Both the position numbers and the translations under genes were made by a program. The notes under the pieces were generated by a model. That model ran no database searches. It was given only the letters and a program-made list of their open reading frames with translations, and was not told the origin of the DNA. Positions 1 to 63,374 of a stretch of DNA of 64,000 nucleotides are shown one piece after another; position 1 is the stretch's first letter, and the number at the start of each line of letters is the position of its first letter. The stretch comes from Patescibacteria group bacterium (GTDB lineage Bacteria; Patescibacteriota; Minisyncoccia; UBA6257; 2-01-FULL-56-20): NCBI GenBank assembly GCA_018971305.1, contig JAGXBC010000001.1, positions 31,408 to 95,407 of the forward strand, written 5' to 3'.

Positions 1-754
1 CGGCCTTGCGCTGGAGGAGATGCGTGACGAAAGTCTTCCGGAACAGGTGGTGCTTGATCTGTTTTTTTATCCCGAGCTTTTCCGCGAGTTCCTGCAGATG
101 GTTCCGGATGTAGCCGCCGGAGCTCCCGCGCACCAGCCTCGCGCGGCCCGATATGAAGAGTGCGGAGTTGTCGTCGCGACGGTTTTCCAAATATCGTTTA
201 AGCCAACACAGGCTACGGTCCGAGAAATATACCTTTTGTCGTTCATGCGATTTCACGTTCGTGATGATCGCCTCTTTTTTCTCCCAATCGACGTCATCTC
301 TATTCATGGGTATGACTTCACCGATCCGCATGCCGGTAGCGTAAAGCACCTCGAGAAGCGTCCGGGTGCGAAGCCCGGCAGGCGTCGAGATGTCGATGGC
401 GTCGAGCAGTTGTTCGAGTTCTTCTTCGGTGAGATATTCGTTTTTCTTCTGAGGCACGGATGGAATCCTTATGTCCTGCCACCTGAACGGAGCCGGTTCA
501 CCGGAATACTTCAGGTATTTCAGGAACTTCCGCAACACAACGACCGAGCGCTGCGCCCCGTACCGGCCGTGTGAACGCCCAGCCTCTATCACCTTCGCCA
601 CGTCGGTCTTCTTGAGATCCGCGATGTCGATGTCGTGGATCGAGTGGGAAAGTGATCCGAGAAGATATACCCGATCGTTAAGAATAGTCTTCCCGCTCAT
701 GCCCATCTTCTCCTGATAGGCTAGGAATGCTTCGAATGCGTTTTTGGTTTTCAT
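1..754 (-). CDS. Tyrosine recombinase/integrase, paralog 1 (partial: C-terminus including the catalytic Tyr lies beyond the window start)
   Basis: Minus-strand translation from ATG at 752-754 gives MKTKNAFEAFLAYQEKMGMSGKTILNDRV...LRTRTLLEVLYATGMRIGEV...HHLFRKTFVTHLLQ. It parallels the adjacent recombinase residue for residue. The plus-strand ORF 20..574 is its antisense shadow. Confidence 0.75.
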   Translation of the reverse strand, partial: MKTKNAFEAFLAYQEKMGMSGKTILNDRVYLLGSLSHSIHDIDIADLKKTDVAKVIEAGRSHGRYGAQRSVVVLRKFLKYLKYSGEPAPFRWQDIRIPSVPQKKNEYLTEEELEQLLDAIDISTPAGLRTRTLLEVLYATGMRIGEVIPMNRDDVDWEKKEAIITNVKSHERQKVYFSDRSLCWLKRYLENRRDDNSALFISGRARLVRGSSGGYIRNHLQELAEKLGIKKQIKHHLFRKTFVTHLLQRKA

Positions 755-1656
755 GGTGCCATATTCCGGCCTCCACCAGTCTTCGGCTTTTTGAGCGTCG
801 CGTTCATGATCTTGGTATGGATCTCTTTCGAGCGCTCTTTGTTTATCGCCGCGTAATAGCGAAGTGTCGTGCGCACGTCCCGATGTCGGGCGAGCTGGCT
901 TACCGTCGCCGGATCCGCTCCTTCCTGGATGAGATGCGTCACGAACGATTTCCTGAAAATGTGGTTCTTGATGTGTTTGTTGATGCCGAGGTGCGCGGTA
1001 TGCGTGCGCAGATACGTGCGGGCCGTGATGTCGAGCAGCCTTCCTTTGCCCGACACGAACAGGTACGGCATGTCGTCCGTCCTCGCGTTGAGATACTTTC
1101 GAAGCCAGAGCAGCGCCCGGTCCGTGAAAAGCACCGACTGCTGGTCTCCATTTTTCGCATTTATGACGACGGCCTCCATCTTCTCCCAGTCGATGTCGCT
1201 TTTGTTTAACGAAATTGCCTCGGAGATGCGCATGCCGGTGGCGAACAGGATCTCGCAGAGCGCCCTCGTCCTCAGCCCATGCAGCTTGCTAAGGTCGAAT
1301 GACTCCATGACCTTGATGAGTTCTTCCTTCGTAAGATACTCGTTGATCTTCCTCGGCACGTGCGGCACTTCGATGTCGCGCCAGTCGAACGGGATCGGGA
1401 CGCTCGCGTCCTCAAGATACTTGAAGAACTTCCGGAGGGTGGTTACGGAGCGCTGCGGTCCGTACTCACCGTGGGCGCGGCCGGCGACGACCACGTCCGC
1501 GATATCTGTCATCTTGAGCGATCCTAACTCACGCTCCGAAATCGAGTGCGAGAACGATCCGTAGAGGATGATCTTGTCCGACGCGATCGTCTTCTGATCC
1601 ATCCCCAGTCGCCGCCTATGGTCGAGGTATCCCTCGAATGCATTTTTCACCGTCAT
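751..1656 (-). CDS. Tyrosine recombinase/integrase (XerC/XerD-like), paralog 2
   Basis: 301-aa ORF with a phage-integrase core: LRTRALCEILFATGMRISEA, HIFRKSFVTHLIQEG, LARHRDVRTTLRYYA (R..H..R..Y signature). Its TGA stop overlaps the ATG of the downstream paralog (ATGA at 751-754). Confidence 0.85.
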   Translation of the reverse strand: MTVKNAFEGYLDHRRRLGMDQKTIASDKIILYGSFSHSISERELGSLKMTDIADVVVAGRAHGEYGPQRSVTTLRKFFKYLEDASVPIPFDWRDIEVPHVPRKINEYLTKEELIKVMESFDLSKLHGLRTRALCEILFATGMRISEAISLNKSDIDWEKMEAVVINAKNGDQQSVLFTDRALLWLRKYLNARTDDMPYLFVSGKGRLLDITARTYLRTHTAHLGINKHIKNHIFRKSFVTHLIQEGADPATVSQLARHRDVRTTLRYYAAINKERSKEIHTKIMNATLKKPKTGGGRNMAP

Positions 1657-3697: not shown

Positions 3698-3952
3698 TTC
3701 ACCGTTATTTCGCTTTATTTTATCGCATTTCTAAAAATAGGGCTACACATTTCGTTCTGAATAAGTTAGCATTCCATCATAACTGAATATGAGGCCTAAT
3801 CCCCGTAGAAATGCGAGGCAGGGCTAAAAATACCAGTCAAGGTCAAAGATCCCATCATGTGGGAGCGCCTTGACTGGTCATACCTCGAAAGGGGTATGGG
3901 TCTCGCAAGAGATCGCCCATGTGGTGGGTTTTTTGATGTTAAATATATCATC

Positions 3953-7002: not shown

Positions 7003-7782
7003 TTATTCGGCTTTCTCGGCTTTCTTTGAACGTACTTTCTTCTTGGGTGCGTCTTCTGCCGCCGGAACTTTTTCCTCGGCAAGCTCCTGAACGGCAACTA
7101 CTGAAATCTTCTCAAAGTGGTCCTTTAGAACATTCGCCGACTTATGAAGCGCCGAGGATGGGCTTATGGTACCGTCCGTTTCCACTTCAAGGCGCAGACG
7201 GTTATAGTCCGTCCTGTCGCCAACACGCATATCTTCAACCACGAAATTTACTTTGGTAACCGGAGTGAATATGGCATCGATGGCAATCGTGCCGATATTC
7301 AACCTCCCCTCCTTTCTGCTTTCTACGGCGGAATATCCGAGACCACGCTCAACTTTTACCTCAATTTCCAATTCGGCGTCCTTAGAAGTCAGCGTCGCCA
7401 ATGGTTCGTCTGGGTTCATAATCTCCACCTCCGAGGTAGTTTTTATATCGGCTGCCGTAATAACCTTTTCGCCCTTCACCTTCAGAATCAATACCTGCGG
7501 CTCATCGATATGCATTTTAAATCTGAGTCTTTTGAAATTAAGGCTGAGCTCAACCAAATCCTCTTTCAGCCCGGGCAATGTTGAAAATTCGTGCGGAGCG
7601 TTCTTAACTTTTATCTCGGTGACCGCGGCGCCTGGCAAAGAAGACAAAAGGACCCGGCGCAAAGCATTGCCTACAGTAAGACCGTATCCGGCGAATAATC
7701 CCTCAACTTCAAAAGTTCCCTTTTTAGAATCTTCGGAAACTGTTTTAATTGTTACTGTTTCGCTTAGATGGGTAAATTGCAT
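7003..7782 (-). CDS. rpoA: DNA-directed RNA polymerase alpha subunit, short form (259 aa, N-terminal domain only)
   Basis: TVGNALRRVLLSSLPGAAVTEIKV...ATLTSKDAELEIEVKVERGLGY matches the alpha NTD. The ORF ends in a lysine-rich tail with no alpha-CTD. Position rpsD-rpoA-rplQ is canonical. Confidence 0.85.
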   Translation of the reverse strand: MQFTHLSETVTIKTVSEDSKKGTFEVEGLFAGYGLTVGNALRRVLLSSLPGAAVTEIKVKNAPHEFSTLPGLKEDLVELSLNFKRLRFKMHIDEPQVLILKVKGEKVITAADIKTTSEVEIMNPDEPLATLTSKDAELEIEVKVERGLGYSAVESRKEGRLNIGTIAIDAIFTPVTKVNFVVEDMRVGDRTDYNRLRLEVETDGTISPSSALHKSANVLKDHFEKISVVAVQELAEEKVPAAEDAPKKKVRSKKAEKAE

Positions 7783-15176: not shown

Positions 15177-16409
15177 CTAAACCAAATTCTCAAATCCCTC
15201 CAGAGCGTTCGCTTTGCCGTGATCGCGGATTTTCTCCAGTGCCTTCGCTTCAATCTGCCTGATTCGTTCGCGCGTAACGCCGAAAGCCTTACCCACTTCT
15301 TCTAATGTGTGGTTCACGCCGTCTTCCAAGCCAAAACGCATTTTGAGAATTTTCTGTTCTCGCTCTGTAAGATCAACTAAAATTTCTTTTATTAAATCGC
15401 GTAAAAGCGCGTGCGCCGTTAATTGCTGGGGGGTGGAATTTCTCTCGTCGGGAATGAAATCCGACAAAGTGGAATCTTCTTCATCTCCTATTGGCGTTTC
15501 AATAGAGAGAACTTCCTGGGAAATTTTTTGAATATGTCGGACTTTATCAACCTCCAATCCCATCTCGGAAGCAATTTCTTCCGCCAACGGGTCGCGTCCC
15601 AGTTCCTGGATAAGCTGGCGGCGGGCCTGAGTGTATTTGGAAATCGTCTCTACCATGTGGACAGGAATACGGACCGTGCGTGACTGGTCGGCCAGAGCCC
15701 TGGTTATCGCCTGTCTAATCCACCAAGTAGCATAAGTGGAAAATTTGAAACCTTTCCTATAATCAAACTTCTCCACGGCGCGCGAAAGGCCGATGTTTCC
15801 CTCTTGGATCAAATCCAGAATACTCAAATTCGGCGTGCGGTTCACATAGCGCTTGGCGATGGAAACAACCAGACGCAGGTTGGCTTTCATTAATCTCTGG
15901 CGCGCGTCTTCGTCGCCTTTCTCGGCACGCTTCGCAAGCTCTCTTTCTTCCAGTTTAGTAAGAAGCGGCGTCTTGCCGATTTCCTTCAAGTACATTTGAA
16001 CAGCGTCGGGGACATCGCCTTCCATCATCAGGGCATCATCAAGCTCTTTCTGATTAAGCTCAGCCTTGGAAAAACCGATAAGTGCGCTCGTTTCTATAAC
16101 CTTAATTCCGGCTTTCTCCAGCCGGTCGTATATTTCGTCAAGCAAAGTAACGTTGTCCTCTATCTTTGGAAAAAGATAAAGTATCTCGTTGTCGGTCACA
16201 AAACCTCGCGGCCGGCCGCGGTCCAAAAGTTCGTTTATCGCTTCTTCGTTGGAGGCGGATATTTTTTTGGCCTTAACATCCTTCGCCGATGTCTTGGCGA
16301 GCTTTTTCCCATGCTCTACTGGCCGCCCCCTGCGCTTGAGAGCCGGCCTGCCTCGCCGAGCGTGTTTAGCGCCTGTTTTTTTTGTTTTTTTCTTCTTGGG
16401 TTTGGCCAT
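15177..16409 (-). CDS. rpoD: RNA polymerase sigma-70 factor
   Basis: Region 2 [40 protein letters not shown] and region 4 [15 protein letters not shown]...[24 protein letters not shown]. Start placed at MAKPKKKK. Confidence 0.85.
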
Positions 16410-16510
16410 TAGGTGATTGTTGGGAATTATAACAGGCAATGAGAATAAAATAAATAGCTGTTTTTTATTTTATACGATACAGCCCGGTTCGTGAGTGTAG
16501 CGACTATAGA

Positions 16511-18247
16511 CTACGACTCAAAAACTTGCAAGGGAATATTGTTCAGCTCTTCCAGCGCCGAACGCAGGCGCGCTTCGTTTCCTTCTTTCTCGGCGCTCTG
16601 CACGGCACGCGCAAGAAAGAGTTTTTTATCTTTATAATGTTCTTTAATAAGTTCATTCTTCAGCTTGGTGACTTCTTTATCCCCGGGATTCTCTGAACCG
16701 AGAATTATGAAATCTATAAGTTCGTCCAAGACGGGGTCTTCGCTCTTGCGCGAGCCGGTCTTCAGAATCTTGAAAATCTTGCCATGAACATCGGCGAAAT
16801 ACGGCGCACAATCCTCAACCAATGAAAAATCATTTTTGGCCACGGCCGCGCGCAACAGCCCCTCGCCTATAAGCTCGCGCCGCGAATATTTGTGCTGGCC
16901 AATCAACGACTTCTCGGCAGCTTCGCTGGCATCTTTAGAGAAATCCGTTTTAGGCAGACCTACTTTCTCGGACTCTTCCAGAAGTATTCTATCTTCTATA
17001 CCGCTTCTCTTTGATAATTCTTTCATCCAAAAAGCGCGCTCAATAGGGCTTGTTATGCTGTTCAGCTTGGTTAAAACAAAGCGGATGTTATTTAAAGTGC
17101 CACGGTCGGAATAATTAACGGAACCCGAAGACACCTCGGTCTTAGCAGGCAGATATTTGCCGAAATAAAACTCCGGTGCCGGAACGGCTTTGTTTATGGC
17201 GTTCATCAGCTTCTCCGCTCCAGCTTGTGCCGCTTCCGCCGGATCCTTAAAATCGGAGAAGGTCACAACCTTAACTCCGAAATCATTAGCTTCGGCAAGA
17301 TCTATAACCCGCTCGGAAGCTGCCGAACCGGCCGAATCGGAATCAAAACTGAGAATGATCTCGTCGGCTAAGCGGCGAAGAGAATGCAGGTGATCCAGGG
17401 TCAGAGCAGTACCCGATGTCGCCACAACATTTTTAACTCCTGCCTGCCAGCTCATCAGAAGGTCCATCTGGCCCTCAACTAAAAAGACATTGCCCGCTTC
17501 CCTGATAAAGTTTTTGCTTTTGTCCAATCCATAGAGCAGACGCGACTTCTGGAAAACTGGTGACTCCGGGCTATTCACGTATTTTCCGAAATCCGCGCTT
17601 TCAAATTGCGGCAAAACCCGCCCGGTGAATCCCACAACCTTTCCGACATGATTGTGAATCGGGAACATGATCCTTCCGCGGAATCTGTCTAAGAGCAATC
17701 CGCGTTCTGTTTTAAGAGCGAGTCCGGCACGCACTACGTCCTCTGGCGCATAACGCGAATTTAACAATTGCATCGTGAGCGCCTCCGCGGCATTAGGCGC
17801 CCAACCCAATTCAAATTCTTCTATTGTTTCTTTTTTTAGCCCGCGCTCAGCCAAATATTTTTTTGCCGGCTCTGAAGCTGTTAGAGATTTTTTAAAGAAT
17901 TCTTTTGCGGCATTATTAAGTTCATATAAAAGTCCGGTGTATTTGTGTTCCGCCGGGTCAAGCCGCCTCAGCTCCACTCCCGCTTTCTCTGCGAGTACAC
18001 GCAGAGCCTCGGAGAACTCCAGATTTTCGTAGCGCATCACGAAACCAAAAACATCTCCACCTAAACCGCAACCGAAACAATGCCACGACTGTCTGTCGGG
18101 CGAAATCATAAAAGAAGGGGTTTTCTCTTTATGGAACGGGCAGATGGCCTTGAAATTCTTTCCGGCTGGCTGGAGATTCAAATAACCACGGAGAAAATCA
18201 ACAATATCAAGCTTTTCTTTAATGGTTTCGGTAGTGGACGATGGCAT
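16511..18247 (-). CDS. dnaG: DNA primase
   Basis: Zinc-ribbon CPFHKEKTPSFMISPDRQSWHCFGCGLGGDVFGFV, then TOPRIM motifs (EGQMDLL...SFDSDSAG). Confidence 0.85.
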   Translation of the reverse strand: MPSSTTETIKEKLDIVDFLRGYLNLQPAGKNFKAICPFHKEKTPSFMISPDRQSWHCFGCGLGGDVFGFVMRYENLEFSEALRVLAEKAGVELRRLDPAEHKYTGLLYELNNAAKEFFKKSLTASEPAKKYLAERGLKKETIEEFELGWAPNAAEALTMQLLNSRYAPEDVVRAGLALKTERGLLLDRFRGRIMFPIHNHVGKVVGFTGRVLPQFESADFGKYVNSPESPVFQKSRLLYGLDKSKNFIREAGNVFLVEGQMDLLMSWQAGVKNVVATSGTALTLDHLHSLRRLADEIILSFDSDSAGSAASERVIDLAEANDFGVKVVTFSDFKDPAEAAQAGAEKLMNAINKAVPAPEFYFGKYLPAKTEVSSGSVNYSDRGTLNNIRFVLTKLNSITSPIERAFWMKELSKRSGIEDRILLEESEKVGLPKTDFSKDASEAAEKSLIGQHKYSRRELIGEGLLRAAVAKNDFSLVEDCAPYFADVHGKIFKILKTGSRKSEDPVLDELIDFIILGSENPGDKEVTKLKNELIKEHYKDKKLFLARAVQSAEKEGNEARLRSALEELNNIPLQVFES

Positions 18248-18353
18248 TTGTTTTGATTGTAATCCTAAAATCGGTTTTCGGGCAAGCAAAAATGTGCAGT
18301 TCTTGGGTACGAAAAATTATCAATAATTGTGGGGTAAATAGATAGGATAATCT

Positions 18354-29565: not shown

Positions 29566-31815
29566 TTACTTCTTCAAAATCTCCCTGAATACCTCCGGCG
29601 ATAAACTCACCCTGCCCGTTTCTTTCAATCTTTTTTTGCCTCGCTGCTGTTTTTTCCAAAGCTTCATTTTCCGTGTTCTGTCGCCGCCGTTCTTCCCGAA
29701 ATCGCCGAGTGCTTTCTTCATCGCAGCAATCGTCTCGCGCGCGACAATCCTGCCCATAGCCCGAGCCTGCACCGCTTGGGAAAATTGCTGTTTCGGAAGG
29801 AGCTCTTTTAATCTTTCAACTGAGGTCCGCGCCTCGCGTTCCATATCTTTTTTGGCAACTATGCGAGTCAAAGCCGGCACGACTTCCTCCGCCACCAAAA
29901 TTTCCAATTTCTCAACCTCCGCTTCCGCCTCGCCGTCCAACTCGTAGCTGAACGACGCAAATCCAGCTGATACCGATTTCAACTTGTCATCAAAATCACG
30001 GATAAGTTCGGAAAGCGGCATGCGCGCGATTATGAGCAGATTGTCACCGATATTTTTTATCTCGGAAACTTCAATATCGAAAATTGTTTTAAGATTAACG
30101 ACTTGGCTAAGGTAGGCCTGAGGCGCGAGTATTTCCATTTTTATCATCGGCTGCCAGACACGCTCGGGCTTCATGGGAAATTCGTGCGGTTCCTTGACGA
30201 TAAAATCTTTTCCGCCGTCGCGTACTCGGTAAGCGATAGAAGGAAAGCTTGTTAAAAATTCCAGATTGAATTCTCTCTCCAGGCGGCTCGCAGTAATTTC
30301 AAAGTGGAGCTGACCCAAAAAACCCACTTTTAAACCTCTGCCCAGAGCTTCGTTCGCGTCGGGCTCAAAGCTCAAAGCGGCGTCAGTTAAACGCAAACGT
30401 TCCAACCCCCTCTGTAAATCTTCAAATTTTGTATCTCCGTCCGGATAGAATGCTATAAAGACTACCGGCGCTGGCTCTTTATATCCATGCAATTGCTCCG
30501 CCTTTGAACCTGCAATCGCAATAGTGTCTCCAATATGAACTAGCGCTGGCTCCTTTAGCCCTGTTGCCACATAGCCCATTTCATCGGGACCTATCGCCGG
30601 GGTCGCCTTCAGTTCCGGAGAAAAATAACCGACCTCCTTGATTTTGAATTTTGCTCCCGTGGCGAGAAGAACAACTTCGCTTCCGGAATTAATAGAATTG
30701 TCGCTTACGCCGGGGAAAACCCGCACGAAAGCCAATATGCCTTTGTGATCGTCGTACAAAGAATCAAAAATCAAAGCACGCGGCTCTTGGCCTCCGGTAT
30801 CATCAATTTTTTTAGGCGGCGGCGTTTGCTTCACGACGCCACCCAAAAGTTCTTTAACTCCTTCGCCGGTCTTCGCAGAAATCCTGAATATCTCTTCTTC
30901 TCCAACTCCGAGTAAGTCCGCGGTTGCCTTAATCACTTTATTTATATGAGGCAGGTCCAGGTCTATTTTATTTACTGCTCCGATAATAGTAAGCCCGGCT
31001 TTTCGTGCCGCACGCAAATTAGAAAGTGTCTGCGCCTGGATTCCTTTCGCGCCGTCAATTAAAAGTACTGCCCCTTCAACTGCCGTTAATGCCCGCGAGA
31101 CCTCGTAAGAAAAATCGCTGTGGCCCGGGGTGTCAATCAGGTTGAGTATATACTCAACCTGCTCAGATTTTCGCAGATCAGACGCAGATGTACGCCGATC
31201 GCGAGCGGAATCGTAAACAATTCTTTCGATTTCAACGCCCTTGGGAGCAAAGTTGATCAAGAGAGATATTTTATAATCAGAACCTCGCAGATAAGACCAG
31301 GCTTGTTTTTTTTCGGTATCGCCAATAAAGGGCAGGGCTTTAAGCTCAATTAAAACCTCCTTATTGATCAGCAGGTCAGGATAATAATCGCCAACAGGTT
31401 TATCATCGTATTGTATTTTTAAATGCGGTTGGGCAATAAAATCAACGCCCCGACTTTTTAGCTCAATCTCCAAGGATTTCTGATATACCGATTCACGAAA
31501 TCCTGGACCAATTTTATTCCAAACATCAAAAGCAGCTCCTCGTATTTTGTAGGTTAATTCCTTGTATAAAAATTTGGTATCTGCGTTTATCTGCGTATCA
31601 TCGGCGTTAATCTGCGCAGGATGCTTATAGAGCATCCTGACGGGCGCCATTTTTATAGTAATCCCCCGCTCGCGCTCCAATTCCAATTTATCCAAATACT
31701 GCGGTTTCATCCGCCGCGCGTCCACCGTTCCCGTAATCTCCAAAAGTCGATCCGCCAAAGTTGATTTACCGGAGTCAATATGCGCGATAATTACGAAGTT
31801 TCTTATATTCTCCAT
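29566..31815 (-). CDS. lepA: Elongation factor 4 (LepA) with an in-frame ~156-aa GxxExxY / PD-(D/E)XK-like insertion in the G domain
   Basis: G1 AHIDSGKST, G2 RGITIK, G3 DTPGHSDF, and the LepA-specific C-terminus GDRTRKMKLWKKQQRGKKRLKETGRVSLSPEVF. Between G2 and G3 (residues ~66-221, nt ~31153-31620) lies a GxxExxY-family module GPGFRESVY...YPDLLINKEVLIELK. Start placed at MENIRNF. Confidence 0.85.
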   Translation of the reverse strand: MENIRNFVIIAHIDSGKSTLADRLLEITGTVDARRMKPQYLDKLELERERGITIKMAPVRMLYKHPAQINADDTQINADTKFLYKELTYKIRGAAFDVWNKIGPGFRESVYQKSLEIELKSRGVDFIAQPHLKIQYDDKPVGDYYPDLLINKEVLIELKALPFIGDTEKKQAWSYLRGSDYKISLLINFAPKGVEIERIVYDSARDRRTSASDLRKSEQVEYILNLIDTPGHSDFSYEVSRALTAVEGAVLLIDGAKGIQAQTLSNLRAARKAGLTIIGAVNKIDLDLPHINKVIKATADLLGVGEEEIFRISAKTGEGVKELLGGVVKQTPPPKKIDDTGGQEPRALIFDSLYDDHKGILAFVRVFPGVSDNSINSGSEVVLLATGAKFKIKEVGYFSPELKATPAIGPDEMGYVATGLKEPALVHIGDTIAIAGSKAEQLHGYKEPAPVVFIAFYPDGDTKFEDLQRGLERLRLTDAALSFEPDANEALGRGLKVGFLGQLHFEITASRLEREFNLEFLTSFPSIAYRVRDGGKDFIVKEPHEFPMKPERVWQPMIKMEILAPQAYLSQVVNLKTIFDIEVSEIKNIGDNLLIIARMPLSELIRDFDDKLKSVSAGFASFSYELDGEAEAEVEKLEILVAEEVVPALTRIVAKKDMEREARTSVERLKELLPKQQFSQAVQARAMGRIVARETIAAMKKALGDFGKNGGDRTRKMKLWKKQQRGKKRLKETGRVSLSPEVFREILKK

Positions 31816-31890
31816 GATGTGAGTGTACAAATAAAAATGGCCATCCACAAGGAATGGCCGGTAAAACATAACAAACACCCGACTCGGTCT

Positions 31891-54962: not shown

Positions 54963-55388
54963 TTAATTCACGACCTCAATCCCCATGTTCCTCGCAGTTC
55001 CTTCTATTGTCCTCATCGCGGCTTCAATATCGTTGGCATTCAAATCAACCATCTTTTTTTCGGCAATTTTCCTGATGTCGGCTTTGGTTACCTTGCCAAC
55101 CTTGATTTTAAGGGGGTCGCTGGAGCCCTTTTCAATGCCGGCCGCTTTTTTGAGCAATGCCGAAGCGGGTGGGGTTTTAAGCTTAAAAGTGAAAGTCCTG
55201 TCTTCGTAGATGGTGATTTCGGCGGGAACGACGTCGCCCGTCATATCCTTCGTCATATCGTTGAATTTCTTGCAGAAATCCTGGATATTCACGCCCTGAG
55301 GCCCTAAAGCCGTACCTATCGGAGGCGCGGGGTTAGCTTTACCGGCTTCTATCTGTATTTTTAAAATTGTTTTAACTTTTTTAGCCAT
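54963..55388 (-). CDS. rplK: 50S ribosomal protein L11
   Basis: [34 protein letters not shown]...[12 protein letters not shown], typical of L11. Confidence 0.9.
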
Positions 55389-55462: not shown

Positions 55463-55912
55463 TTAGAAAGGCAAGTCTTCCGGTTTTACTTCGCCCTCTT
55501 CTTCTAGATTAATAGTTGGAATTTCTTCTGCCGCCGCATCGGAATCAATCTTTGCCGCTACGTTTACCGGTCTCGCTCCTCCTTGCGGCCTCGGACCAAA
55601 TTGAACTCTTTCCGCCACAATATCCGTTGTCTTTCTTGACTGACCCTGTTTATCCTGCCAAGATCGCGTTTGCAAACGGCCCTCAATCATAACTGTTGAA
55701 CCCTTAGTGAGGAACTGGCTCGTAATCTCCGCTTGCCTGCCCCAAACCACTATATTATGGAACTCGGTGCTTTCCTGCTTGGCGCCGGATTTATCCGTCC
55801 AAACACGATTGGTAGCCAAGCTGAAACTCGCCACCGACTGCCCGCCGGCAGTCGTTCTTAACTGCGGATCTGCTGTTAACCTGCCAATGAGAAAAACTTT
55901 ATTAAGATTCAT
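55463..55912 (-). CDS. ssb: Single-stranded DNA-binding protein
   Basis: OB-fold MNLNKVFLIGRLTADPQLR..., Gly-rich tail and acidic C-terminal tip ending DLPF. Confidence 0.9.
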   Translation of the reverse strand: MNLNKVFLIGRLTADPQLRTTAGGQSVASFSLATNRVWTDKSGAKQESTEFHNIVVWGRQAEITSQFLTKGSTVMIEGRLQTRSWQDKQGQSRKTTDIVAERVQFGPRPQGGARPVNVAAKIDSDAAAEEIPTINLEEEGEVKPEDLPF

Positions 55913-56019: not shown

Positions 56020-56451
56020 CTATTTCAATATTTCCTCTATCTTCTGCTCTAGAATCTCATTACTCAGAGTTTTCGGCTCGGAAGGCGCAGCCGGACGTAC
56101 TGTTTTTCTTATAATCGGCTTTCTCGGCGATCTAGATTGCTCGGACATTATCTGGCGCTTAGGCAAGCTGATTATTAAAAATCTTAAGACTTCGGCGTTC
56201 GTACTCAAATCGTGTTCCAATAATTTTATATCGGATGGATAAGCGCTAACGTGGACAAAACCAAAATTTGCGCTATCCAGATGTTTTATTTTGTAAGCCA
56301 AGCTGATTTTTTTTATCGGAGAGATCGGGCCGGCTTCAACACTGTGTTGGCCCATAAGCCGGAGAATATCGGCTGCCGCCTCTTCCTTCTGTACTAAAAA
56401 AGAAAGCTCGTAACTTTTTTTGTCCGCCTCCTGTTTCTGGTTTGTATCCAT
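56020..56451 (-). CDS. rpsF: 30S ribosomal protein S6
   Basis: YELSFLVQKEEAAADILRL...ANFGFVHVSAYPSDIKLLEHDL matches the S6 fold; sits upstream of ssb in the conserved rpsF-ssb arrangement. Confidence 0.8.
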   Translation of the reverse strand: MDTNQKQEADKKSYELSFLVQKEEAAADILRLMGQHSVEAGPISPIKKISLAYKIKHLDSANFGFVHVSAYPSDIKLLEHDLSTNAEVLRFLIISLPKRQIMSEQSRSPRKPIIRKTVRPAAPSEPKTLSNEILEQKIEEILK

Positions 56452-56469
56452 AAATTTGATTCTACGATT

Positions 56470-59400
56470 CTACTCGGTTTGCGATTCTTTTGCAACTTCT
56501 GGAACGGGAGCCTGAAGCTCCGATACTTCATCATCGGAATCACCGGCTCTTTTCACCTTAATCTCTCCGGAAGGTATTAATCTGCCTATAATCACATTTT
56601 CTTTAAGCCCGCGCAGATTATCGGTCCTGCCCTCGATAGCCGCCTTCACTAAAACTCTTGCCGTATCCTGGAAAGACGCTGCGGCAAGGAAACTATCGGA
56701 AGAAATAGCAACCCGCGTTATGCCTAATAGAATTTCTTCGGCCTTAGCAACCTTGAGACCCTGTTTTTTAAGTTCTTTATTGACGTCCATCAGCAAAGCT
56801 TTTTCAATGATTTCCCCCATGACAAAATCCGAAGCATCTCCGGCATCCTTGATTTTAACCCTGGAGAACATCTGCTTGATGATAACTTCTATGTGCTTGT
56901 TGTTTATAGAGGCACCTTCGGAGAGATAGATCCTTTGAACTTCGTTCACAACGTAGCGCTCAACTTCCCTTACGCCTCTGAATTCCAAAAGTTCTCTCAA
57001 GTCAATGTGACCCTCGGAAATCTGCTGGCCTTTTTCAATTTTATCTCCGGCTTTCACGAACAAAAGAGCGGAACGCGGCACCGAGAACTCCTGGGCTTTT
57101 TTCTTTTTGGTTTTCTGAGGATTTTTTTCCAATAGTTTTATTATCTTGCTCGTCCCCTTTTCTTCTATAACATCAATCGAGCAATCAAAGGGAGCTAAAA
57201 TAGCCTTGCCTTTCGGCGGGCGGACTTCAAAAATTTCTTCCACGCGCGGCAAACCGTGGGTGATGTCCACTCCGGCAACACCTCCGGTGTGGAAAGTTCT
57301 CATCGTAAGCTGCGTTCCAGGTTCACCGATTGATTGCGCGGCAAGTACCCCTACCGCTCCACCCAGTTTAACCGGTTCATTGCTGCCGAGATCCAGTCCG
57401 TAACAAGTGGCGCAAAGACCGTAAAGAGTTTTACAGTAAATAGCCGAACGAACTTTAACTGATTCCAATTTGGATTTATCCAGCATCTCGGCTATCGCTC
57501 TTGTGATCACTTCTCCGGCGCGAACAACGATCTTCCTGTCGATTCTTATGTCTTCTAAAGCTGTTCTTGAGAACACTCTGCTAGAAAAAGACTGATTGAA
57601 TTCTTTCCCGTCTTTGCGCAAAATTTCTATCCCCTCTTTCGCGCGGCAATCGTTTTCCCTGATTATGAGATCCTGAGAAACATCAACCAAACGCCTGGTA
57701 AGATATCCTGCTTGTGCAGTTTTTAAAGCCGTGTCCGTAGTACCCTTTCTAGCGCCGGTAGTGGAAATAAAGTATTCCAAAACAGAAAGACCCTCTTTAA
57801 AAGATGATTTGATAGGCAATTCAATCGTTTCTCCTTTCGGATTAGCCACCAATCCTTTCATACCCAACATCTGTATCGGCTGAGCCCAGGAACCGCGCGA
57901 ACCGGAATCGATAATCTGGTAGATGGAATTGTTCTTCGGCAGGGAAGTGGCAACAAGCTTGGCAATGGTTTCCTTCGCTTTTTCCCAGACGCTGATTGTC
58001 CGCGCCCTGCGCTCGGATTCGGTAAGCAAACCCTCGTTCCACTGATCGTGAACAATGTCTATTTCTTTTTCTGACGCTCTGATGATATCTTCCTTTGTGC
58101 CAGGTGCGACAAGGTCGGATATTGCCCAAGTGATTCCAGACCTTGTGGCCATATCAAAACCGAGTGATTTTACCTCATCCAAAACCTCGCGAGTCACCTT
58201 TAATCCGCGGCTCTCCAATATCTTTTCAATAATAGAAGTAAGTTTTTTCTTGTTAATCGTGTCATTTACAAAATCCGCAGCGCCGCACAGGGCTTTATTA
58301 AACATCAACCGGCCCAAGGTTGTTTTTATTCCCTGGGATAATATCGGGTCGTGAAGCTTCAGGCTCCCTGACTCGTAGGCCAATACCGCCTCATCAAAAC
58401 CGGACATAGCTTTTATAAGGGCTTGGTTATCTTCTTTTATAAGTGTCAGATAATAAATACCGAGGACGACATCCTGGGTCGGATTGGTAATAAGATCACC
58501 GGTAGCTGGTTTCAAAAGATTTTGTCCGGCAGACATTATAGTAGCTGCTTCGTGCTGGGCATTCTCAGAAAGCGGCAGGTGGAGAGCCATTTGGTCACCA
58601 TCGAAGTCGGCGTTAAAAGCCGCGCAAACAAGCGGCGGAACGTGTATGGCTAATCCCTCAACAAGAAGCGGCCTGAAAGCCTGTACGCTCAAACGATGCA
58701 AGGTAGGAGCCCTGTTCAATAGAACCCATTTGTCTTTTATAATTTCTTCCAAAATCGCCCAAACCTCGTCACCGCCTTCTTCCATGAAGCGATTGGCGCT
58801 CCTGATGTTATGGGCCAATCCTCTTTTCATAACTTCGCTCAAAACGAACGGACGGAAAAGTTCCAAGGCCATTCGCTTGGGAACTCCGCACTCGTCAATT
58901 TTCAATTTAGGACCGACGACAATAACCGAACGGCCGGAGTAATCAACTCTTTTACCCAAAAGGTTCTGGCGGAACCTTCCTTGTTTGCCCTTAAGCATAT
59001 CTGCAAGGGAACGAAGCGGACGGCGCTGAGCGGACAATTGCTGCGTGCCGAAACGGGCAGAATTATCTATGAGGGCATCAACGGATTCCTGGAGCATTCT
59101 TTTCTCATTCCTCACGATCACATCTGGAGCTTTGATCTCCAAAAGCTTCTTCAAACGGTTATTGCGGTTGATGACGCGCCGATATAGGTCATTAAGATCG
59201 GATGTCGCATAGCGGCCGCCGTCCAGCGCGACCATCGGGCGCAGATCCGGAGGCAAAACCGGCAAAACATTAATTATCAGCCATTCCGGACGAGCCTGGT
59301 TCTTTATCATGGAACGGAACATCTTCAGGCGGCGCAATAATTTACCCTGGGTAAGCGGGTCTTTCGCGCCTTCAAGCTCTTTTTCTATCTCTCTCATCTC

Positions 59401-62400
59401 TTTTCTCAGATCCATTGACTTCAAAATTTCATATACGGCTTCTGCGCCGCTGCCCGCTTTGAACACATCGCCGAAGCGGCGGGAGAGATTGAAATATTCG
59501 GTCTCGCTCAAAACCTGGCCAACGCTAAGGTTTTCCAGGTAATTTCCGGTAACATCTGCTGCCTCGTTAAGTTCCTGTTTGGTCTTTTTGTCTTTGCCGC
59601 CAATCTTCAATTTACCCTTGAGCTGACGATTCAGGTCTTCCAAAGCCTGCTTCCTCAATTCTTCGTTAACCTCCGTGACAATATAAGCGGAGAAATAAAT
59701 AACTCTTTCCAGCTTTGTAGAAGGAACGTTAAGGGTCAGACTGAGGCGCGAGGGAACGCTCTTCAGAAACCAAATATGGCTGACCGGAGCTGCCAAGGCA
59801 ATGTGCCCGATTCTTTCGCGCCGCACGACAGCTCTTGTTACTTCAACACCGCACTTGTCGCAGACGACACCCTTATAACGAATCCTCCTGTACTTACCGC
59901 AATAGCATTCGTAATCTTTAGTCGGACCGAAAATTCTTTCCGAGAACAATCCGTCTTTTTCCGGACGCTGAGTTCTATAATTAATAGTTTCCGGTTTAAC
60001 CACCTCACCGTGTGACCATTTTAGAATATCTTCTGGAGAAGCGACGCTGATTTTAAGAGACTTGAAATCCTCCTTACGGGACATTTCTGACTCGTATGTC
60101 GGCTGAATATTAAAACACAACGATTTCAACTCGTTCACTAAAACATTGAAAGATGCCGGAAGATTCGGTTCCTTAATGGATTCGCCTCGAATAATAGACT
60201 CGTAAGCGGCGGCCCGTCCTAAGACATCATCCGACTTAATGGTCAGCATTTCCTGCAGGGTGTGGCGTGCCCCGTATCCCTCTAGGGCCCAGACTTCCAT
60301 TTCCCCGAAACGCTGCCCGCCGAATTGAGCTTTGCCGCCAAGCGGCTGTTGCGTAATTAAGGAATATGGTCCGATAGAACGCATATGCGCTTTATCTTCC
60401 ACTAAATGGTTGAGCTTCATGATATAAACCTGTCCGACCATTACCTTATTATCGAACTGCTTACCGCTCCTGCCGTCGTAAAGGGCAACCTTGCCGTCTT
60501 CGGGAAGCCCGGCTTTCTTTAATTCTTCTTTAATCTCCTCTTCGCTAGAAGAATCTAATCCGGGAGTAATGGCCCGATAACCGAGACGCTGGGCGGCCCA
60601 GCCTAAGTGAGTTTCCAAAATTTGCCCCAAGTTCATACGCGAAGCGACGCCAAGCGGATTCAAAATAATGTCTACCGGTGTCCCGTCTTCAAGATAAGGC
60701 ATATCTTCCACGCGCCTTACCTGGGAAATAACACCCTTGTTTCCGTGCCTGCCGGCAAGCTTATCTCCGGCCTGCACCTTACGAAGCTCAGCCACCTCAA
60801 CCTGAATTCTCTTGATGATTCCCGGCTCCAGCTTATCTCCTTTCTCACGGTCAAAAACCTTGATGTTCACAACGCGTCCGCGCTTGCCGTGAGGCAAGGT
60901 AAGAGACGTATCTTTCACATCGCGCGCTTTCTCTCCGAAAATAGCCCTGAGCAACCGCTCTTCAGAAGTAAGCTCGGCTTCGCCTTTCGGAGAAATTTTA
61001 CCAACCAAAATATCGCCGGATCTGACTTCTGCTCCGATTCTTACAATTCCTTCCTCGTCCAGATTCCTCAGTTTCTCCTCGGAAACGTTCGGGATGTCTG
61101 GTGTTGTGAGTTCCGGACCGAGCTTCGTGTCACGGACATCGTGGTAATAATCTTCTATATGGATGGAGGTGAATAGGTCGTCGCGCACAACCCGTTCAGA
61201 AAGAATAATTGCGTCCTCAAAATTCGCGCCTTCCCAAGACATGAACGAGACAAGAAGATTCTGTCCGAGAGCGAGCACTCCATTATCAATAGACGGCCCG
61301 TCAACCAAAACCTCTCCCTTCTTAACCGACTGTCCGGAGACGACAAGCGGCCTCTGGGATATACAGGTGAATTGGTTGGATCTCTTGAATTTTTCCAGTA
61401 TATAATTTTTTACGCTCTTAGCGTATTTAACTTTTACGTGGTTGCCATCCGATTCCAGGATCTTTCCATCCGCTTCGGCAATAACAACATAACCGGAATC
61501 GCGCGCCACTCTGTCCTCTTCTCCGGTGGAAACATAAGGAGCGTTCGGCCTAACGGAAACGACAGCTTGACGCTGCATGTTAGAACCCATCAGAGCGCGA
61601 TTGGCATCGTCGTGCTGCAAGAAAGGTATTAAAGATGTTGCCACGCTTACAAACTGATGGGGAGCAATGTCCGTAAAATCAAGGTCTTTGGGAGCGCAGG
61701 TGCTCGGCGCGCCATGAACTCTCGCCTCTACCAAATCTCCGGCAATATTGCCTTCGGGATCTTTTGCAACTCCCGCATGCGTAATTTTGTATTTCTCTTC
61801 TTCCAGGGCATCCAGCCAAACTATTTCTTCAGTAATACGACCGTTTTTAACCCTCGCGTAAGGCGTCTCTAAAAAACCGAAATCATTAACCCGAGCAAAG
61901 CTTGCTAAATAGTTGATGAGGCCGATATTGGCGCCTTCCGGAGTCTGAATCGGACAAATCCTGCCGTAATGCGAACGATGAACGTCACGCACTTCAAAGC
62001 TGGCGCGTTCGCGAGTAAGTCCGCCGGGGCCCAAAGCCGAAATTCTGCGCTTGTGTTCCAGCTCTGCCAATGGATTTACCTGGTCCATAAACTGCGAAAG
62101 CTGTGAGGATGCAAAAAACTCCTTGATAACCGCCGAGACGGGACGGAAATTAATTAGCTGCGCCGGCATCAGACGTTCCTTCTCTTCTGTGGACATCCTG
62201 TCCTGAATAATTCTGCGCAGGCGGGCGAAACCTATTCTTAATCTTCCTTGCAGCAACTCGCCAACAGCTTTAAGCCTTCTGTTTCCAAGGTGATCAATGT
62301 CGTCTGGCTGGGCGGCTGGATCATTATTTAAAGATATTATCTCGCGCACAATGCCGATGATGTCATCAAGGTCAAGAAGACGGTTATCTTTTTTACTGCC

Positions 62401-63225
62401 GAACTTCAACCGCTGATTGGTTTTGAAGCGGCCCACCGGAGACAGGTCGTATCTGTCCAAACGCTGGAACATAGCATCAATCAAGCTCTTGGCCGTTGCC
62501 GGCGTCGCCGGGTCACCCGGGCGCAAACGGCGGTAAATTTCCATATACGATTCATCAACGTTCTTAGCTACATCTTTTTTAAACGTAGCTTCAATATATT
62601 TGGCACCAACGCCGGGGAAAGCGTCTTTGATCTTATCCTCTTCCATACCGAAAATACGAAGCATATCTGTAACCGGCACCTTGCGGCGACGGTCGATTTT
62701 AACATGTATGGCTCCGTCCAAGTCGGTTTCAAATTCCAGCCAGGCACCCCTATTCGGAATAACCTTGGCCCCAAAAAGCTGCCTGCCCCTCGTAGGGACG
62801 GCGGTAAGATAAACCCCAGCCGATCTGATAAGCTGAGACACGACAACACGCTCAACGCCGTTAATAATAAAAGTGCCGCGCTCGGTCATTATCGGAAATT
62901 CCCCAAAATAAACTTCTTGCGTTTCCTTGTGGCCAGTTTTCTTGCTCTCCAGAGTAAGCTTTATGCGCAACGCTGCTTCATATGTGGCATCGCGATATCG
63001 CGCAGTGGCTTCGTCGTACTTAGGTTCATCAAAATGGTAATCACTGAAGCTCAATTCCAGTTCCTTACCGGTGTGGTCATAAATAGGAGAAATCTCGTCC
63101 AATAGTTCCCGTAATCCCTTTTTAAGGAACCACTCATAAGATTTCAACTGAGTCTCATTCAGATTGAATGGCTTGATGAGGGACTGGGATTTAGAGAAGT
63201 TTTTGGTTGATAAAAATTTAGGCAT
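56470..63225 (-). CDS. rpoBC: Fused DNA-directed RNA polymerase beta-beta' subunit (RpoB-RpoC in one 2251-aa ORF)
   Basis: The N-terminal ~1020 aa carry RpoB motifs ([29 protein letters not shown]; ...[48 protein letters not shown]). After the short linker [14 protein letters not shown], RpoC follows: zinc finger [35 protein letters not shown] catalytic loop. No stop or frame change occurs across the junction (~60.07-60.10 kb). Confidence 0.9.
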
Positions 63226-63374
63226 TGATACCTTTACGCAGGTTTGCGTTATATTTTAAAAAGTATTAAAACATCCCTCAAAAAATCCGAGAAAACTAAA
63301 TTATGTAACTGCGAAACCTGTTCATGGATAAGAACCGCAAAAATACCCCACAACAGGTCTCTTGTGTCGTTGGT

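Follow-up and report, generated by a model that had tools for sequence, protein, structure and literature searches.

On a 64,000-nt stretch of contig JAGXBC010000001.1 from a Patescibacteria group bacterium (hereafter the window), the genes for the beta (RpoB) and beta' (RpoC) subunits of RNA polymerase form one continuous open reading frame (ORF), rpoBC, which lies on the minus strand, starts with ATG and encodes 2251 amino acids with a computed molecular weight of approximately 252 kDa. A preliminary description of this DNA, which did not give the strand, had placed rpoB and rpoC in a single 2251-amino-acid frame; both the ORF listing of the window and the ordered Pfam domains bear this out, and the peptides that it quoted (the RpoB N-terminus MPKFLSTK..., the linker, the RpoC N-terminus and the zinc finger) are all present in the translation. 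As argued below, it is highly probable that rpoBC represents a genuine, evolutionarily fixed rpoB-rpoC fusion in one clade of Patescibacteria, or Candidate Phyla Radiation (CPR), and that it is made as one chain.

The RpoB half contains all six Pfam domains in the order Rpb2_1, Rpb2_2, Rpb2_3, Rpb2_45, Rpb2_6 and Rpb2_7 (amino acids 22–1041), followed by all five domains of the RpoC half, Rpb1_1 to Rpb1_5, also in order (amino acids 1052–2156), with E-values across the 11 domains ranging from 1e-9 to 1e-123. The Rpb2_7 match reaches profile position 83 of 87, and the Rpb1_1 match starts at profile position 2. Against the rpoB equivalog models, the fused protein scores 1505.7 bits for NF001616 (cut-off 896; amino acids 7–1041 corresponding to profile positions 3–1093 of 1096) and 1489.3 bits for TIGR02013 (cut-off 801), while against the rpoC model TIGR02386 it scores 1536.7 bits (cut-off 963.5; amino acids 1057–2220 corresponding to profile positions 2–1139 of 1147). 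Both halves are thus members of the bacterial RpoB and RpoC equivalog families, with near-complete coverage of the models, and the catalytic and structural motifs located in the translation are all intact (Table 1). At the junction, the other two frames are interrupted by stop codons, and the rpoBC frame has none. The module sizes in the preliminary description (about 1020 amino acids for beta and 1230 for beta') are corrected to 1041 + 12 + 1198 amino acids. An open frame of 6.7 kb with 11 ordered and significant domains, kept in at least 120 homologues, cannot be a product of chance.

These homologues were obtained by searching the full protein against a collection of 5.8 billion proteins, from which the best 120 cluster representatives were taken. 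They are 2240–2322 amino acids long and 70–82% identical to the window protein, each has the same 11 domains, and all 120 cover a 100-amino-acid segment spanning the junction in a single BLAST alignment. They come from independent NCBI, JGI, ENA and Logan assemblies, and the relatives that bear names are assigned to Candidatus Liptonbacteria, Candidatus Ryanbacteria, Candidatus Paceibacterota/Pacebacteria, Minisyncoccia or simply "Patescibacteria group". In agreement with these assemblies, the same fused ORF, 2281 amino acids long, is found in a GTDB species-representative genome of Paceibacterota (L001), and a contig of 913,682 bp carries the homologue P0039 followed by rpsF, ssb and rplK as in the window. 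Looking for the fusion in related genomes, a check that the preliminary description had proposed, therefore gave a positive answer: the fusion is fixed in the lineage and conserved in independent genomes. Database entries for these relatives read no more than "subunit beta'" or "hypothetical protein", because the protein falls short of the curated models of fused subunits and reaches the cut-offs of the ordinary rpoB and rpoC equivalogs.

Conservation extends to the linker itself. Counted from the equivalent of Q1041 to the equivalent of F1054, the linker is exactly 12 residues long in 112 of 121 sequences, and it follows the pattern P-x-Y-[ED]-x-x-x-x-R-[KR]-[DE]-x. The conserved positions are kept in 87–97% of the 121 sequences, with P at position 1042 in 105 sequences, Y at 1044 in 107, R at 1050 in 109, K or R at 1051 in 111, and D or E at 1052 in 117. 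A length and residues kept in this way argue against an accidental read-through of an intergenic spacer, and suggest that the linker is ordered rather than a floppy tether. Judged from the sequences, the linker of the CPR clade is also the most uniform among the fused proteins recovered. Its end, MSRKEDF in the window protein, resembles VSRVADF, the head of RpoC at an unfused locus (L047), and the codon for M1048 may therefore show where rpoC once started. In most fused relatives, T, S, G or N has taken the place of M1048 and the ATG is not conserved, a drift that would be expected of a codon once it no longer served as a start.

Unfused genes and gene lengths for comparison were taken from a genome scan with the junction alignment. 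The patterns that the scan relied on, NYRTQRPE and GEVxKPETI, are universal in rpoC, and the 80 loci of diverse bacteria that it yielded thus amount to a near-random bacterial sample. Walking upstream in frame from the RpoC N-terminus, we found only L001 and Helicobacter muridarum (L066, whose fused RpoBC has 2887 amino acids) to be genuinely fused among the 80 loci listed. At one further locus (L077), the frame is open for 3909 nt upstream, but RpoB lies in a different frame, and this locus was not counted as fused. Ten other Patescibacteria loci, labeled Saccharibacteria, Parcubacteria, Zambryskiibacteriota, Paceibacterota or Minisyncoccia, have a stop codon, a spacer of 6–100 nt and a separate rpoC start. 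A neighbor-joining tree was built from the 2155 columns in which the beta and beta' sequences, fused or concatenated, align well. All 100 of 100 bootstraps recover the fused CPR proteins as a single clade, which branches from among the Patescibacteria that keep two genes. Identity to the window protein is 72–83% for the fused members and does not exceed 60% for the nearest unfused sequence sampled. On this topology, the fusion is a single, fairly old event inside the Patescibacteria.

A plausible route to the fusion can be seen in the unfused relatives. At locus L002, the spacer between rpoB and rpoC is 9 nt long and in frame (TAA TAC TAT CGT ATG), so that a single stop-codon substitution would fuse the two genes. 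The RpoB proteins of unfused CPR bacteria end in charged C-terminal tails of 10–60 residues, which are missing from the fused proteins. Most likely, the two genes became one in an ancestor whose in-frame spacer was very short, through loss of the rpoB stop or a deletion of a few bases, and the leftover tails would subsequently have been trimmed to the present 12 residues. Such a route would run parallel to the "overlapping, then fused" scenario that a 1999 paper by Zakharova and colleagues, cited in PMC7483510 and PMC1557499, names in its title.

Two explanations would remove the fusion altogether. A stop codon or frameshift might have been lost in assembly, in which case rpoB and rpoC would really be separate genes, and many short junction-spanning database fragments from other lineages do look frameshifted or garbled, with GC-rich nonsense linkers, so that public data do contain such artefacts. 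However, the same in-frame junction and linker length recur in the best 120 homologues from four data sources, in L001 and on the 913-kb contig. Conservation of the linker also holds for its amino acids, and a spacer read through at random would not show this. An assembly artefact has next to no chance of being the correct explanation, and can for practical purposes be regarded as excluded by the conservation among homologues, as opposed to the reads of this particular sample. It is hardly conceivable either that the fused ORF is a decayed, non-functional copy accompanied by a working split rpoB/rpoC pair elsewhere in the genome. Our view is limited to 64 kb of that genome, but the motifs are intact, identity within the clade is 72–83% over 2250 amino acids, the scores exceed both equivalog cut-offs, and the synteny with ribosomal genes is conserved. 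Moreover, Patescibacteria have genomes of about 1 Mb, in which duplicates of 7-kb essential genes are unexpected.

Accepting that the fusion is genuine, rpoBC would be translated as a single beta-beta' polypeptide of about 252 kDa that joins an alpha dimer and sigma to give the RNA polymerase holoenzyme, with the short tether fixing a 1:1 ratio of beta to beta' and making the last assembly step intramolecular. The C-terminus of beta and the N-terminus of beta' lie side by side in the clamp of RNA polymerase, and a short tether should therefore be tolerated. Alternatively, the fused ORF might still yield two subunits, either through internal initiation near the junction, at M1048, or through proteolysis of the linker. 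An in-frame ATG five codons ahead of the beta' homology, the similarity of MSRKEDF to the unfused RpoC N-terminus of L047, and a conserved linker that could in principle be a processing site are all in keeping with this, but the M1048 position is not conserved, L001 and a further relative (L081) have no ATG there, and the junction DNA of these two relatives and of the window has no start codon or Shine-Dalgarno motif in common. In addition, AGGAGG, the one strong Shine-Dalgarno-like motif that the window has there, lies downstream of the M1048 ATG and cannot serve it, and the natural Helicobacter fusion is reportedly expressed as one polypeptide according to work by Zakharova and Severinov. 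We consider two separate subunits improbable, and M1048 was rejected as a generally retained rpoC start; a small possibility is left that initiation there gives a separate beta' in this organism only. Several points weigh against a genuine fusion that is made as one chain. At the protein level, we infer both the single-polypeptide product and its place in RNA polymerase; the closeness of the two termini is taken from published structures; and the in-frame ATG at residue 1048, seen in the window alone, could give some separate beta' by internal initiation. The geometry of the linker is likewise uncertain, because an AlphaFold2 model of amino acids 860–1420, built with 30 fused homologues, has a mean predicted local distance difference test score (pLDDT) of 54.7 and a predicted template modeling score of 0.44; its local pLDDT of 66–78 near the junction, where a strand-loop-strand runs across the linker, is only a hint of structure in a low-confidence model. 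Finally, the taxonomic limits of the fusion are known only roughly from the genome scan.

The preliminary description also called both halves unusually compact, which applies in comparison with most bacteria (in 65 sampled genomes, rpoB encodes 1058–1501 amino acids with a median of 1268, and the median for rpoC is 1412) but not in comparison with other Patescibacteria, for which such sizes are ordinary. Unfused Patescibacteria have rpoB products of 1058–1134 and rpoC products of 1176–1317 amino acids, and the smallest of the sample are all Patescibacteria. The beta' module of 1198 amino acids is within the range of Bacillus-type beta' chains in the PDB (1161–1199), and the beta module of 1041 is slightly under the smallest PDB beta among the best matches (1100). 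Compactness is therefore a trait of Patescibacteria generally, to which the fusion adds only the loss of terminal tails.

Table 1. Positions of rpoBC, its parts and other features in the 64,000-nt window
Feature	Position	Strand	Basis or remark
rpoBC, whole gene	56470..63225	minus	ORF listing, 11 ordered Pfam domains, NF001616 and TIGR02386; stop codon 56470..56472
Beta (RpoB) module, amino acids 1–1041	60103..63225	minus	Pfam, NF001616
Rifampicin-region motif, beta module	62068..62118	minus	Motif location
RHGNKG motif, beta module	60733..60750	minus	Motif location
GEMEVWA motif, beta module	60286..60306	minus	Motif location
Linker, 12 residues, amino acids 1042–1053	60067..60102	minus	Last beta-homologous to first beta'-homologous residue
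In-frame ATG (M1048) inside linker	60082..60084	minus	Codon listing
Beta' (RpoC) module, amino acids 1054–2251	56473..60066	minus	Pfam, TIGR02386
Zinc finger, beta' module	59839..59907	minus	Motif location
NADFDGD catalytic motif, beta' module	58594..58614	minus	Motif location
Bridge helix, beta' module	57679..57756	minus	Motif location
Second Cys cluster, beta' module	57403..57648	minus	Motif location
Trigger loop, beta' module	57280..57327	minus	Motif location
Promoter-like site TTGAGG-17-TAAAAT	63253..63281	minus	Upstream of rpoBC start; consensus match only
rpsF (ribosomal protein S6)	56020..56451	minus	Pfam; starts 18 nt past rpoBC stop
ssb	55463..55912	minus	Pfam; 3' of rpsF
rplK	54963..55388	minus	Pfam; 3' of ssb
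rpoA	7003..7782	minus	
Primary sigma-70, adjoining dnaG	15177..18289	minus	
LepA (EF4)	29566..31878	minus	
LOOT RNA	3793..3914	plus	
Phage_integrase family ORF	751..1656	minus	
ORF, 914 amino acids	23361..26105	minus	
ORF, 621 amino acids	9810..11675	minus	
ORF, 379 amino acids	11494..12633	minus	

The minus-strand gene order between 54963 and 63986 is yceG/mltG, rpoBC, rpsF, ssb, rplK and tmk, and rpsF is probably co-transcribed with rpoBC. The fused gene lies outside the canonical rplKAJL-rpoBC operon, with no rpsR after ssb and no rplA after rplK, and the order rpoBC-rpsF-ssb-rplK is kept in the relative L081. Ahead of the rpoBC ATG, there is a weak AAGG at a distance of 8 nt. A scan for promoters and terminators around rpoBC gave counts not above those in shuffled sequence (15 promoter-like sites near rpoBC, compared with 11.9 ± 3.6 after shuffling), and nothing at the junction.

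Elsewhere in the window, rpoA encodes 259 amino acids with the RNA_pol_L and RNA_pol_A_bac domains and a short K/E/A-rich tail, but no alpha C-terminal domain; it is followed by rplQ, rplM and rpsI. It was reported that Parcubacteria lack the alpha C-terminal domain (PMC8321222), with which the window rpoA agrees. The primary sigma-70 has 420 amino acids and regions 1.1 to 4, and counting sigma-70, rpoA and rpoBC, four RNA polymerase-related genes lie within the 64 kb. Taken together, the short rpoA and the fused beta-beta' point to a pared-down RNA polymerase. In such a minimal enzyme, an alpha subunit lacking its C-terminal domain would work with a single-chain beta-beta' and sigma, and it is conceivable, although unlikely, that the fusion is more than a neutral accident, with the linker forming an ordered part of a minimal RNA polymerase that has been re-engineered so that the tether replaces assembly help lost in ultra-small cells. 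This possibility is raised because the length of the linker is fixed and its sequence is conserved. If it were true, a large branch of Paceibacteria would be defined by the fusion as an obligatory and rare genomic change, and no other natural single-chain catalytic core of a cellular RNA polymerase would be as small.

Several other features of the window are unrelated to rpoBC. The 770-amino-acid LepA ORF contains, in frame, a PD-(D/E)XK_3 domain (PF13366, E = 1.7e-31, amino acids 106–219), and this nuclease-superfamily insert splits the GTP_EFTU domain in two, which is unusual for a translational GTPase. The LOOT RNA matches the full length of its Rfam model (RF03000) with 93.7 bits, against a gathering score of 46.4. 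The Phage_integrase family ORF, a tyrosine recombinase, lies within positions 1 to 2000, where the GC content is 54%, compared with approximately 46% in the rest, and this stretch may be the edge of an integrated element. The last three ORFs in Table 1 had no Pfam match at E ≤ 1e-5.

The joining of rpoB to rpoC is regarded as a rare genomic event and has been used to mark clades, for example the Helicobacteraceae. The fusion described here may likewise offer a simple molecular trait by which to delimit a large uncultivated group of Paceibacteria that are relatives of Liptonbacteria and Ryanbacteria. It also has practical consequences, since marker-gene pipelines and annotators that label only beta', or a hypothetical protein, will register a single gene in place of the two expected markers. 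The chain is compact, with 2251 amino acids compared with 2456–2890 for the other full-length fused proteins recovered (a protein of 2153 amino acids, P0163, could not be judged), which makes it attractive for structural work or for the expression of a minimal bacterial RNA polymerase from fewer genes. The occurrence of fusions in Wolbachia, a haemoplasma and the CPR clade hints that they may recur with reduced genomes. The fusion leaves the understanding of transcription as such unchanged.

Beta-beta' fusions were reported for Helicobacteraceae and Wolbachia (PMC7483510), and the fusion was called a rare genetic event that marks the Helicobacter-Wolinella lineage (PMC1557499). The statement in the preliminary description that such fusions are known in only a few lineages, for example Helicobacter and Wolbachia, matches these papers, but the databases hold a dozen or so further fused lineages. 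These were recovered by an exhaustive HMMER search with a 250-amino-acid junction query against representatives at 50% identity, in which P0057 alone stands for the whole CPR clade. To be counted as a fused lineage, a protein had to be full-length; many short matches to the query in two stretches, which have GC-rich nonsense linkers or reversed halves, were treated as frameshifted or chimeric calls. The dozen or so other full-length fused representatives (P0129–P0219, 2153–2834 amino acids) go beyond the lineages named in the literature. They include Mycoplasma wenyonii (P0152, WP_014849752.1), whose 2648-amino-acid protein is called "Multifunctional fusion protein" in UniRef, a protein that JGI labels "beta-beta'" (P0156), some proteobacteria-like proteins, and two (P0203 and P0219) that branch beside Chloroflexi loci in the neighbor-joining tree. 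In the open literature that could be searched, we found no paper describing an rpoB/rpoC fusion in Patescibacteria, Parcubacteria or CPR, and nothing on a fusion in haemoplasmas. Therefore, the CPR fusion appears to be undescribed in the literature searched, yet is present in public databases under generic annotation.

The window protein resembles the RpoBC of Helicobacteraceae (Helicobacter and Wolinella) in being a natural, clade-wide, in-frame fusion in which the C-terminus of beta is tethered to the N-terminus of beta'. By contrast, its origin is independent, with 47% identity to the protein of H. muridarum and a place in a different part of the neighbor-joining tree; the Helicobacteraceae proteins are about 640 amino acids larger (2887–2890 compared with 2251), and their linker is longer and unrelated (...NVYGDKVDEFGLIKPLVVGEDEKDRPRDF...). 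The window protein does not belong to the curated Helicobacter-type family (NF007172/PRK09603), for which it scores 2169 bits in six stretches against a cut-off of 5372. The Wolbachia RpoBC, cited beside that of Helicobacter (PMC7483510), is similarly a beta-beta' fusion of natural origin, in a bacterium whose genome is reduced, but it comes from an unrelated lineage, the Alphaproteobacteria. Its family model (NF011417/PRK14844) is 2839 positions long and has a cut-off of 4632 bits; with 2069 bits in six stretches, the window protein is not a member of this family either. The proteins of M. wenyonii and of the other database fusions are also single polypeptides with both modules, but they share 40–51% identity with the window protein, have unrelated linkers of 4–63 amino acids and branch outside the Patescibacteria. 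Judging from identities, linkers and tree positions, the CPR fusion arose independently of those in Helicobacteraceae, in M. wenyonii and in the remaining fused lineages that were recovered. For the Wolbachia type, independence is concluded from the failed NF011417 score, no Wolbachia sequence having been identified among the fused proteins recovered. It thus seems that rpoB and rpoC have been fused repeatedly. The CPR protein would function in the manner of the known fusions.

No fused chain was found among the best 60 sequence matches in the PDB. A tether between the subunits has reportedly been shown to be compatible with an active enzyme, by means of an artificial E. coli beta-beta' fusion made by Severinov and colleagues in 1997. 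Work by Zhang and colleagues in 1999 is also said to bear on RNA polymerase structures or on the artificial fusion, with the C-terminus of beta near the N-terminus of beta'. The engineered E. coli fusion joins the C-terminus of beta to the N-terminus of beta', which is the mechanism assumed here, but it is artificial and consists of the larger E. coli subunits. This engineered fusion is mentioned in a preprint (bioRxiv 10.1101/2021.11.05.467461).

The closest non-fused relatives are the separate RpoB and RpoC of other Patescibacteria (L002, L017, L024, L072 and L075), which are encoded by adjacent genes, are 54–60% identical to the window protein, and are equally compact and without large lineage-specific insertions. 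They differ in that a stop codon, a spacer and an independent rpoC start are kept, and where the unfused proteins carry RpoB tails of 10–60 charged residues and RpoC N-terminal extensions, the fused clade has a fixed linker of 12 residues instead. The fused protein is thus in kind a natural beta-beta' fusion, and one that lies outside both curated fused families.

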